Origin: Eledone cirrhosa
Lineage: Eukaryota
Assembly (NCBI GenBank): GCA_964016885.1
Contig: OZ024743.1
Coordinates: 202,740,001 to 202,804,000 of the forward strand
Reading direction: 5' to 3'
DNA: 64,000 nucleotides
A program made the translations under genes and the position numbers. Shown here piece by piece: positions 30,684 to 46,921 of the stretch (the stretch's first letter is position 1; the number at the start of each line of letters is the position of its first letter). Under the pieces are notes generated by a model that was not told the origin of the DNA, searched no databases, and worked only from the letters and a program-made list of their open reading frames with translations.

Positions 30684-31468
30684 ATTAAAATATATCATTC
30701 TTCTAGAAGAAGCAGTAACTTTTCCAAAATTATTTTATTTATAGAAATTGTTAGATTGATCTTCAGGATCCTAGAATCTTTATTTGTATTCTATATCCCT
30801 TCGCAATTTAGTTTTCGGTTTCCTTTTTACGTTTCATCGTCCTTTTTACATGTTATTAAAGAAGGATATTTCTTAGCTATATTTCTTTCCTTCAAAGAAC
30901 TGTCTTAGATTCTAATGTTAGATCCCAAAGTTAGAAGGAAGAACAATTGCCATCAATTCTACCATTGCTACTGAATTAGTCAGATCAATCTGATTGTAGA
31001 TATTTGGGAAGTTCTTTTCAGTTGGCACTGCATTTCTACTACTAGGGACTTGTTATATACATTTCATAATTTGTTTGTAAAGGTGAAAGGAATAAAGGAA
31101 AATGAAAAAAATATTAAGGGATAATGATACCTTGGAAATCTGTATTCACGTGTGGGAGTCTATATATAGGGATATGGATAGACATATATATATATATATA
31201 TATATATATATATATATATATATATATATATATATATATATATATATATATATATCGTTTCTGAATTTGTTTAGCAAGATTCTTTATCTGAAATCGTGTG
31301 TTGAAACCGATATTGTTATACTTTGGGAGGGTCATGTTGCCAATAAGAAACACACGCACCAGTTGCTTTCACTTCAATTTAATTTAATATATATTTATAA
31401 ATTTACAAATTTATAAATTTCTGGTTGGTTGGTTGGTTCCACAACCAGATAGTTGTTTATATATATAT

Positions 31469-31513
31469 AGTCATAGTTCTTTCGTCACACACTCTGTGAC
31501 CTCTTCAGTGACT
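31469..31513 (-). ncRNA. Minimal type I hammerhead ribozyme
   Basis: Mirror of 35194-35238. Confidence 0.78.
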
Positions 31514-31809
31514 GGGGATTTCTTTCTTCGTTTCTGTGCCTTTCCTTTCTTCTATCCTACGCCATTTTGTTTGTGTGTGGGTTGCGTGCTCAGTTTGCGC
31601 ATGCGCCACATCCGGGTGTCTGTGTGTGTTTGTGTTCATTTTTCTATTTTTCTATTTATATTTGTTTGTTTATTTATTTATTTATTGTTGGTTGGTTGTT
31701 TGTTCTATGTGTGTGTGTGTTTTCATTTTGTCTTGTGTGTGTTTTCATTTTGTGTGTGTTTTCAATTGTAAGTTGTTTATATATGTGTGTGTGTGTTTTC
31801 ATTTTGTCC

Positions 31810-33243
31810 TTAATTGTAAGTTGTGATGTTGCTGTTCCACTCATATTTTCTATTTAATTTTGGTTTTAATTCTTTTATGCTTACTGCCTCTGTAATTTGC
31901 CTAAACATTGCGTCTTTCTTGTGTGTGGATTCTATTTTTATTTCTATGCTCTCTAATTTACCCCTGTGTTCTATCTTAGCATGTTGGTAGAGCACAGATG
32001 ATTCTTTACTATCTTGGAGGTCTCGCCAGTGTTCATTTATTCGTTCCCCTATACTACGAGCTGTCTCACCTATGTACACTATATTTTTGTTTCTACATTG
32101 TCCCTCAGTACATCTTATGCTATATACTACATTTCTAGTTTTACAGTTAATATGGGGGCTTATTTTACAGGTTATACATTTCTTATCTATACATGAGGGT
32201 CTTTGGAACGGGTATGTCTTGCTAATAAGTGTTTTTACGGAGGTACCAGGTCTTTCTACTATCTTAATATTGAGATTATGTTTCTTTAGGGCCCTTCTAA
32301 ATTTGTAGGCTAGTTCACCTCTAGGGGTTGTATTGATGAACATTACACTCTGGTATTTATTGCTATCATACCATGAGTTTATTCTATTGGCCTTGTTCTT
32401 AGTTCTTTCTATTCTATTCCAAAATTTGCTCCTATACAAGGGGCAGGTCCCATTTATGTCATTATTTACCATTTTTTCCCATTTGGTTCTGGCTCCTTTA
32501 TACACTCTGATTCTATCTCTCTGATTGTAGCCAGAGAACTGCATACGGTGGATGAAGTGTTGTATGTGTCTCTCTAGTTCTTCGGGGTTGCACATGCGGG
32601 ACACATTTCTCATCACCCGTATCAAATCCGCAATCAGTATGTTGATTTTGGTATGGTCCGAAATGGCCGAGTTTCGGTGGATCAGATGTTTGGAAGTCAT
32701 GGGTTTGGCATAATGGGAATGGAGGATTTGTTTTTGGTTGTTAATAGTATCTAACCAGAGCTCTGTGTCTAGTACAGGTAATCGATGGTTGGGGTGTCTA
32801 CTTGGGTAGTCTATAGTAACTCTAATGCTCTGGTGGATGGAGTTTGCTATTTGCTGGATGCTTTCCATTGTGTTTTTCTCAGGTTCCTGACTGTTCTTTA
32901 GTGGGGGTGTCTTAACTACGATGTTTATATCATCTACGTAGCGGGAGTACATTATCAGGGTTAATCTGTCTTCTAATTGTTCTTTAAGTTTTTGTTTAAG
33001 TCTACTGTCCCACCATACCATGAACAAGTTAGCTATGTCGCCTGCAATGCTAACACCAATGGCTGCTCCTTCCTCTTGGGCATATGTTTTACCATTAAAT
33101 TTGAACATATGTTCCTTAAGGGTTAATTTTATGCTGGCCCCTACCGCATGTGCAATCATTTTCTTCAGTTCATCGTGGTTTTCGGGTGTCCGTATGGCTC
33201 TGGTCCACCCGTTCCATCTATCTGTGTGGGTTTTCTTGGCCAT
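31810..33243 (-). CDS. PLE RT (from motif B region) plus thumb plus GIY-YIG endonuclease, 5'-truncated, 477 aa
   Basis: QEEGAAIG..ANLFMVWWD, RYVDD, LPVLD, CX4CX2C linker, VVYSIRC..YIGETAR..RINEH, RQITEA. Confidence 0.9.
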   Translation of the reverse strand: MAKKTHTDRWNGWTRAIRTPENHDELKKMIAHAVGASIKLTLKEHMFKFNGKTYAQEEGAAIGVSIAGDIANLFMVWWDSRLKQKLKEQLEDRLTLIMYSRYVDDINIVVKTPPLKNSQEPEKNTMESIQQIANSIHQSIRVTIDYPSRHPNHRLPVLDTELWLDTINNQKQILHSHYAKPMTSKHLIHRNSAISDHTKINILIADLIRVMRNVSRMCNPEELERHIQHFIHRMQFSGYNQRDRIRVYKGARTKWEKMVNNDINGTCPLYRSKFWNRIERTKNKANRINSWYDSNKYQSVMFINTTPRGELAYKFRRALKKHNLNIKIVERPGTSVKTLISKTYPFQRPSCIDKKCITCKISPHINCKTRNVVYSIRCTEGQCRNKNIVYIGETARSIGERINEHWRDLQDSKESSVLYQHAKIEHRGKLESIEIKIESTHKKDAMFRQITEAVSIKELKPKLNRKYEWNSNITTYN

Positions 33244-44844: not shown

Positions 44845-45048
44845 GGACAAAATGAGGGCACACACACACATGGAACAGGCAGCCAGCCAACAACATGTAA
44901 ATAAATAAACAAATGGATAAGTGAACACGGGCACACACAGACACCCGGATGTGGCGCATGCACAGACTGAGCGCGCGGCGCACACACAGGGACAAAATGG
45001 CGTAGGACAGAAGAAAGGAAAGGCGCAGAGACAAAGAAAGGAGTCCCC

Positions 45049-45093
45049 GGTCACTGAAGAGGTCGCAGAGTGTGTGACGAAAGGACTATGACT
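45049..45093 (+). ncRNA. Hammerhead ribozyme (hypermutated copy, core intact)
   Basis: GGTCA-CTGAAGA-G-GTCGCA/GAGTG/TGTGAC-GAAA-GGAC-TA-TGACT. Confidence 0.72.
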
Positions 45094-46921
45094 ATATATA
45101 AACAACTGTCTGGTTGTGGAACCAACCAACCAACCAGAAATTTATAAGTTTGTAGATTTGTAAATTTATAAATTTATAAATATATAATAAATTGAAGTGA
45201 AAGCAACTGGTGCGTGTGTTTCTTATTGGCAACATGACCCTCCCAAAGTATAACAATATATATATATATATATGTGTGTGTGTGTGTGTGTGTGTGTGTG
45301 TGTGTGTGTGTGTGTGTGTGTGTGTGTGTGTGTGTGTGTGTGTGTGTGTGTGTGTGTGTGTGTGTGTGTGTGTGTGTGTGTCAGATTGGTGGCCGTAAAA
45401 GCCAGTTAAACCATTACTTACCAGAGTACACGATACTTGGGCTGGAAGAGTGGGTAAAATGAAAAATTCGGGACCCTGACGGCTGAGCTCCGGTCATTTC
45501 AACATCTAGATCCGTTCATATCTGTATATATATAATATTAGTACAGATTACATGATTAAGCATAGAATCTCTGATTTTTTTCCCTAAGAAGGATCATCTG
45601 AAAATTTAAGATAACTCTGCCAAGGATGAAAGCAAATTTTTTTTATTAAACTTTTAATCTGTAGTAATAATAAATATTTGTTTTATTGGTTTATATATAC
45701 TCGAATGGATTTTGGTCTTTGTATTTATTATTTGTCATAGTACCATTGATGTTGGATATTTCTTAAATCATTTTGCAATTATGAGAATTTAGAATTGTTT
45801 CATCATGAAAGAATTTTTGCTAAGATTTTGTTTGTCCCTAATTAAGTTATATTTCAGGTTTGTTATCGGTAAACCAGCCATTAGTTCTCGTTAATATCAT
45901 ACCTATATGACACAGATTCTGCCTGGAAAAACCTTTATTTTGAAATTATCTTAAATCTTTGAAATTTCCTCAAAATTGTGGATAGTAACGAAAGACTTGC
46001 CATTTGACACATCAACATTTTTTTGTTAATTTAGTCCCAGTCTCTCTGGTTTTCGGTCTTATAAATAGATTGAAGTTGGCCCTAACTAATCGAGGATCAG
46101 TCCAGCACCCTGCTCGTCTCATTCTACCCACATTTTAAAACTAAAATATAATCAATCATATGCCAATACTTACACCCTGGTTACATACATGTTGATATAT
46201 ATTTACCTGTTTATTATTACGCGTTGATGTTCAATGTAAAAAGGGAGTCCTGAAACACCATTTCAGTTGTAATTTCCTACACCATGTCTACCCAAGACCG
46301 GCCAGGTCAGGAAATCAGAACCAGCCCTCAAGTTGAAGTCGCCCATAATTACCTGCTTATCAGCACCTGGTTAATTTTTCACAAATTCTTAAAATTCGTT
46401 GTAAATTGTTCAATAGGTTTTTCTTAGTGAAACATTGTGGGAGGGTAAACCCTTATTATTCTATGGAATTTTTGAAATGAGATGGCATGATATATGTTTT
46501 GAGGAACCACAGGGATAACATTCAAATGATGACATATGAAAGTTTCTATTAGCCAGGCCAACATCTGATTCTATGCTTTGATCTTCTGCTACACCTTTCT
46601 AGAAGAAAGTGTAACCGTATCTAATTTCATTGAGCTGATCATCTTGGCGTTTCACAAGGATTGCCACTATAACTCTTCACACCTTAGTAAATTAATAGTG
46701 GACAATCCCATTATAAACATACACACACATCCATACATACACACACATATATATATATATGGGATAACAAGTTATTGTTTTAGGTAATCCAGTTAGAGGT
46801 TGTGAGTACTCTGAACTATGGATAGTTTTAACGTACGGCGTTGTTTGACTCAACTAGAGGTTACCTTAGTTAGGTAGCGAGTTTGCGAGAAGTCCCATGT
46901 AGGTTATTATTGGAGTAATAG

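Follow-up and report, generated by a model that had tools for sequence, protein, structure and literature searches.

How a single family of Penelope-like elements (PLEs) came to be present as two very different insertions is the question raised by a 64,000 nucleotide stretch of the 3.0 Gb genome of Eledone cirrhosa (contig OZ024743.1, positions 202,740,001 to 202,804,000; hereafter the window, whose own coordinates are used throughout). A young PLE insertion at 31256-35397 is a palindrome whose head-to-head arms are complementary at 2040 of 2041 positions, and 8 kb from it lies a hypermutated copy of the same family at 43290-45259 with 143 A>G changes on its sense strand. The hypermutated copy is most probably the product of ADAR acting on partly double-stranded sense RNA before reverse transcription, with both of its arms likely derived from that one RNA molecule. 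A sequence-only reading of the window had recognized the two forms, and had gone on to propose a self-limiting loop in which palindromic insertions are transcribed as kilobase-long hairpins, edited by ADAR, released by their hammerhead ribozymes and returned to the genome as crippled retrocopies that limit or diversify the family. The presence of a PLE neighbour within 8 kb has a chance of about 2.5% per locus, and the window was noticed for that proximity.

The edited copy is itself a head-to-head insertion with the same sense edits in both arms, a feature that had been overlooked. It consists of an unedited tail with 22 A's on the sense strand (43290-43343, minus strand), a short arm of 562 nt (43344-43905, minus strand) whose T>C changes on the plus strand correspond to the sense A>G edits of the right arm, a 6 nt filler at the central junction that resembles the start of the right arm (43906-43911), and a tail-less long arm of 1348 nt belonging to the older subfamily B (43912-45259, plus strand) that is edited from 43943 to 45108. 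Compared with the majority base in each column of 29 sibling loci (L032-L060; L numbers denote loci throughout) the long arm has 143 A>G changes and nine other substitutions, with G>A numbering just four, which sets the polarity as A>G; all 29 siblings have an A at 136 of the 143 sites. The edits fall on 28% of the A's and depend on the 5' neighbour, the edited share being 43% after T (44/102), 32% after A (63/194), 23% after C (26/115) and 11% after G (10/94). Of the 309 codons in the arm 79 are altered, and there is one TGG>TAA stop. That stop is created by a GG>AA double change at 44174-44175, which is present in none of the 29 siblings and is not an editing product. The short and long arms have 48 edits in common, with one and three private to each, the single one lying at the junction.

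The neighbouring palindrome was considered as the donor and rejected: at seven covered diagnostic sites the edited copy has the older subfamily's base at five, a third base at two and the palindrome's base at none, and its arms are more diverged from each other than are those of the palindrome. The copy thus belongs to an older subfamily and did not derive from the palindrome locus, in agreement with the earlier suggestion of a sibling donor. A DNA search with the edited arm recovered no edited donor among the best 40 of 4103 candidates, the nearest being 87% identical.

The window copy is not unique in its editing. A census was made with degenerate patterns having one or two fixed G's at one 30 nt site in the open reading frame (ORF), a site that is matched by 5752 arms of the family. 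The broadest sense pattern has 29 matches, of which 13 have at least three additional G's, one has two and 15 have none, and the flanks were compared for all of them. Twelve of the 15 single-G matches were set aside as unedited point variants, and the remaining three arms (two in L127 and one in L141) are edited as judged by their flanks. There are therefore 17 edited arms in 15 loci (13 heavily and two lightly edited), all with sense A>G changes, representing about 0.3% of the arms (17/5752), which is a lower bound from one site. Two antisense patterns have 20 and three matches, none of which (0/23) has a second T>C change, and the 22 loci in which these matches lie show no T>C excess; the difference between sense and antisense (17/29 and 0/23) has p=3e-6. 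The sets of edited sites overlap little between loci (Jaccard 0.03-0.44), and the 15 loci thus represent independent editing events, none of which descends from another; this leaves no support for the diversification that had been envisaged. One of the loci carries a further short and older pLTR (pseudo-long terminal repeat) fragment that was separately edited, with 17 A>G changes (L100:3455-3711), 1.4 kb from the other edited insertion and separated from it by a LINE fragment. Short edited copies are probably undercounted.

Pooled over the 15 loci, the edited share is 40% after T, 29% after A, 13% after C and 10% after G, TAG is the best triplet, and 26% of the edits have a 3' G. Clustered, strand-specific A>G changes with a 5' preference of U>A>C>G and a slight 3' preference for G are the pattern of ADAR hyper-editing, and a weak 3' G preference is reported for some invertebrates (PMC5625713). 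Judged by this signature the enzyme is very probably an ADAR, and the proposal that ADAR-type editing of PLE RNA has been fixed in retrocopies is borne out by the polarity, the context and the edits common to both arms. A young RTE-type family served as a control. At one test site it has 1981 copies, and none of nine single-G matches has a second G in the site letters. The difference between heavily edited PLE arms and RTE copies (13/5752 and 0/1981, one-sided p=0.02) agrees with the predicted enrichment in a palindrome-forming family, and offers modest support for it, coming from one site and one family in which about 4-6 edited RTE copies would be expected. The RTE-type copy in the window lies at 18222-19070, and all 25 copies compared begin aligning at 18222, which may be the fixed 5' end of a non-autonomous RTE derivative. 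One RNA run, taken as contigs only, had a word share of 7%.

The two arms of an insertion can be compared directly at the five loci where they overlap inside the edited zone, the second arms of L095, L100 and L101 lying outside the heavily edited zone. Besides the window copy, edits common to both arms number 98 in L094 (with five and four private), 16 in L099 (one and three), 37 in L122 (none private) and 94 in L127 (none private); pooled over the five loci 293 edits are common and 16 are private. Had a hairpin transcript been copied, each arm would have its own independent edits, all on one genomic strand; instead the arms have the sense edits in common, so that the inversion was made after editing. 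One edited sense RNA is therefore likely to have templated both arms of an insertion, with the inversion arising at the time of insertion. The antisense template proposed by PMC3846280 is correspondingly disfavoured for this family, as seen through its edited minority of copies, and the copying of a kilobase-long hairpin is not supported, there being no antisense-edited arm among the 23 antisense matches.

A different view of the copied RNA comes from where the edits stop. The last edit in the window copy is at 45108, and the final 150 nt of the arm (45109-45259, plus strand) have none of 56 A's edited, which has a chance of about 1e-8. The tail of the edited copy is identical to that of the palindrome (31256-31309; 54/54) and is unedited, as had been described, and since the last part of the arm is just as clean the tail is no evidence for a hairpin. 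The changed interval does lie within sequence that would be double-stranded in a palindrome, but trivially so, as the palindrome covers the whole copy except for the tail. From locus to locus the edited cluster ends at different 3' positions, with a spread of about 590 nt, contrary to the prediction that edit boundaries match the arm end. In the final 65 nt of the pLTR and the tail taken together, there is a single edit among 461 A observations. L122, a long copy, has an internal 5' edit boundary and about 440 clean nt ahead of the pLTR.

The hammerhead motif in the edited arm (45049-45093, plus strand) has an intact core, and the copy runs unbroken past the predicted cut after 45088 with edits on both sides. 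Edited copies in general are likewise continuous past the cut site with edits on both sides, and in L094, L124 and L127 the catalytic core has been edited away. On this evidence the hammerhead in the copied RNA is uncut, and copying does not require that the pLTR being copied has its hammerhead intact. Uncut copies agree with the in vitro finding that unprocessed RNA is the main substrate of a lizard element (PMC11167929), and contradict the release of edited RNA by the ribozyme.

The family to which both insertions belong has a full unit of 4286 nt, as defined by tandem copies, with a 1278 amino acid stop-to-stop frame in L069 at the start of which the tail lies; neighbours in the Atlas at 0.95 bear RVT_1, HTH_animal and GIY-YIG domains. 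The young palindrome, of subfamily A, has a 54 nt tail on its left arm (31256-31309, minus strand) made up of the initial codons of the ORF that follow the end of the pLTR, and none on its right arm. The left arm itself (31310-33350, minus strand) contains a 5'-truncated reverse transcriptase (RT), a GIY-YIG endonuclease and a 3' pLTR, the centre (33351-33356) lies on a short self-complementary AGCT, and the right arm (33357-35397, plus strand) is open to a stop at 34897, with RVT_1, GIY-YIG and a CX4CxxC linker. An arm codes for the C-terminal 512 residues of the RT/GIY-YIG protein, with the linker motif CIDKKCITC upstream of the endonuclease; the Pfam match to RVT_1 (E=2e-4) is below the cut-off and that to GIY-YIG (E=1e-4) scores 22.7 bits against a cut-off of 22.6. 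A minimal hammerhead is predicted in the pLTR at 35194-35238 (plus strand; CUGAAGA, stem II, GAAA, a UA cut site and stem I), its core and stems recognized by pattern and folding, and a mirror copy begins at 31508 on the minus strand. An Rfam search detected no hammerhead in either the palindrome or the edited element.

The single ORF with RT and C-terminal GIY-YIG, the Cys linker, the pLTR with its hammerhead, the tandem or inverted 5'-truncated arms, the tail at one end, the (TA)n targets and an Asn-rich ORF segment are all features described for canonical endonuclease-bearing (EN+) PLEs such as Neptune and Nematis (PMC8557442, PMC3846280), although the tail of 54 nt is longer than the 30-40 nt described there. 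A CX2-5CxxC linker and (TA)n targeting are characteristic of the Neptune clade, and these sequence features, rather than an RT phylogeny, point to a Neptune/Nematis type. Residues about 270-400 of the L069 ORF form an Asn/His/Thr-rich low-complexity insert, as in rotifer Penelope families (PMC3846280). The family is large, recently active and thriving; at least 40 copies are 100% identical to a 1 kb query.

Both tailed and tail-less ends of the elements adjoin (TA)n at AATAT motifs that lie 60 nt apart, and by far the commonest non-continuing classes are ATATATAT (64 tail-less ends) and AAATATAT (59 tail ends). Scripted detection found head-to-head insertions at 24 of 40 sampled loci; six of the 40 could not be aligned at the 88% threshold, and three of the 24 pairs consist of older insertions lying next to each other. 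Both arms extend 750 nt inward from the 3' end in 10 of 87 loci, and eight of the 24 pairs have near-symmetric arms. In 11 of 33 head-to-head pairs, the edited window copy among them, the tail-bearing arm is the shorter, so that neither arm contains the other. The arm centres of L174, L191, L194 and L202 have templated fillers or a short snap-back copy at the junction, resembling polymerase-theta-type joining.

The window contains several other sequences of related kinds. Further PLE fragments are present at 21788-22531 and 28792-29439 (both minus strand), one of them 77% identical to the main family and one with a weak GIY-YIG match. There is a hammerhead-like core near 20999 (minus strand) and another at 2137 (plus strand), and a second repeat has identical, inverted cores at 39848-39892 (minus strand) and 40453-40523 (plus strand), whose Rfam E values of 0.04 and 0.009 are under the gathering score. 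Older palindromes at 17-1507, 36480-36855, 38188-39100 and 53525-53966 are formed by other repeats and are 90-95% complementary; the first looks by eye like a GIY-YIG 3' end, and none of the four has an A/G skew between its arms. A GC-rich, LINE-like RT region interrupted by stops is located at 10961-13170.

Which account of the edited copies best fits these data? The proposed loop as a whole is improbable. The frequency of head-to-head insertions, the presence of edited copies in this family and their absence from the RTE control, the internal 5' boundary of L122, as expected from a truncated inverted arm, and the heavy hyper-editing of lizard Penelope RNA (PMC5625713) all speak for it. Against it stand the small edited share in a family that numbers at least 5752 arms and has young copies identical to one another, the failure to find retrocopied antisense arms, the scattered 3' boundaries and the clean stretch before the pLTR of L122, a hammerhead that is uncut and in three loci destroyed, and the lack of descendants among the 15 edited loci. 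A self-limiting role resembling repeat-induced point mutation (RIP) is hard to reconcile with so small a share and such identical copies, with the qualification that the genome would hold no trace of edited RNA that had been destroyed ahead of copying. The loop apart, the double-stranded RNA may have come from the antisense transcripts of thousands of dispersed copies, the palindromes being incidental, a possibility that we place somewhat short of an even chance and that would alter only the first step of the mechanism. Edit intervals with variable 5' and 3' ends and an unedited priming region suit such intermolecular pairing, as pairing along a complete hairpin would leave the pLTR end hidden, while the RTE family with its 1981 dispersed copies, none of them edited at the test site, tells weakly against it given the 4-6 expected. 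An inverted arm in cis has a chance close to even as the source of the double-stranded RNA, and pairing in trans accounts for the remainder.

Deamination of adenine at the DNA level, either in plus-strand DNA within a hybrid or by an unknown mutator, would carry no information about the template strand. In vitro, the DNA strand of hybrids can be a substrate of ADARs. Nonetheless the density of edits, their U>A>C>G context and their strict bias towards one strand fit hyper-editing of double-stranded RNA, the edited sites are common to both arms despite the arms lying on opposite genomic strands, and we regard a DNA-level origin as very improbable. The chance that the copy represents a G-rich subfamily, APOBEC G>A changes read backwards or an assembly artefact is negligible. 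These were refuted by the A found in all 29 siblings at 136 sites and by the copy being unique above 87% identity among the best 40 of 4103 candidates; moreover, the other edited loci have different sets of sites, and the arms differ at several sites and so are not collapsed. A real rival concerns how the second arm is made. The same editing of a single RNA could be followed by folding of the first cDNA on itself, with unequal arms arising by later central deletions, and this we consider possible though not favoured. The exact agreement of edits in L122 and L127 (131 sites, none discordant), the symmetric arms centred on short palindromes (AGCT in the window, and in L127, L177, L181 and L192) and the snap-back filler in L191 are as expected from folding back, and PMC3846280 put forward self-priming, albeit with an antisense template. 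However, young near-identical insertions in which the tail arm is kilobases shorter (L202, L196 and L193) would need a large one-sided deletion each time, and in vitro the lizard (Anolis) element nicks and extends both strands, RT starting on unprocessed RNA at two sites that bracket the tail (PMC11167929). We lean towards dual priming, in which both nicked strands would prime at the two AATAT sites, given these lizard data and the shorter length of the tail arm in a third of pairs, young ones included. Several points weigh against the interpretation we prefer. A>G changes private to one arm show no enrichment relative to unedited palindromes (29/99 and 42/193, p=0.25), and so do not suggest that inosine was read twice independently; near-symmetric arms, with their centres on short palindromes, suit folding back as well as they do dual priming; the 3' sparing is not absolute, L100:3455-3711 being edited into its last 65 nt; the census, drawn from one 30 nt ORF site, misses short or diverged copies; and the editing of PLE RNA by ADAR is read from genomic copies.

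A plausible scenario is that a sense PLE RNA pairs in part with antisense PLE sequence and that ADAR would then deaminate 10-45% of its A's according to context. The hammerhead would leave the RNA intact, and the last 70-120 nt would usually remain unedited, as they are in the copies. With the ORF of the edited RNA recoded, the PLE protein that would nick the (TA)n DNA probably comes in trans. The same RNA could then be primed twice, once from each target strand, at its pLTR end and at its tail end, and the 3' ends of the two cDNAs joined head-to-head. The outcome would be a dead-on-arrival copy, a by-product of editing rather than an effective brake. We propose the complete picture tentatively, namely that edits act as strand-resolved barcodes of single molecules, that a single uncut sense RNA, primed twice from the two nicked strands of (TA)n, gives rise to head-to-head insertions, and that the family's own inverted insertions feed the edited double-stranded RNA.

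Parts of this scenario have counterparts elsewhere. Retroviral proviruses hypermutated by ADAR have clusters of A>G changes carried through reverse transcription. In the twin priming of L1, two primers on one RNA give an inversion whose pieces barely overlap, whereas both PLE arms repeat the same 3' sequence. Fungal RIP kills repeats with dense transitions of one type, acting on duplicated DNA, on both copies and on most repeats; here the editing is at the RNA level and affects single new copies. Hypermutated, strand-biased and dead-on-arrival retrocopies are also known for LTR retroelements subject to APOBEC (PMC4866542, PMC2873906), although with a different enzyme, a cDNA substrate and G>A changes, and the screen of LTR elements reports other mismatch types as very rare and invertebrates as devoid of signal (PMC4866542). 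ADAR1 restricts L1 without editing it (PMC5224506). PLE RNA is a major ADAR target in lizard (PMC5625713), where the editing is described at the RNA level only, whereas here it is fixed in genomic copies. The Anolis element PAc resembles the present one in having two RT starts that bracket the tail, extension of both strands and a dispensable hammerhead cleavage (PMC11167929); it differs in being a Poseidon-clade element studied in vitro and primed without homology, whereas both ends lie on target-matching AATAT here, and the relevant parts of that study do not demonstrate the origin of inverted arms or one RNA for both. PLEs are known to have inverted arms and a tail on one side, and how such insertions are made and on which template strand is stated as open (PMC3846280, PMC8557442). 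Edited genomic copies are not described in the relevant passages of those accounts, and the literature searched, which took in few subscription papers and no supplements, held no report of ADAR-edited genomic PLE copies. A 2026 preprint in which retrozymes are treated as non-autonomous PLEs, searched by terms, likewise held no passage bearing on them.

The edited copies inform PLE replication from genome sequence alone, pointing to a likely sense template and likely one molecule for both arms, and their main value is as natural single-molecule barcodes that make this replication testable. As a defence, editing has a small effect on inserted copies. The copies are also a source of odd G-rich repeats that transposable element annotation would mis-split, and they constitute a fossil record of germline hyper-editing and a heritable path from RNA editing to DNA change.

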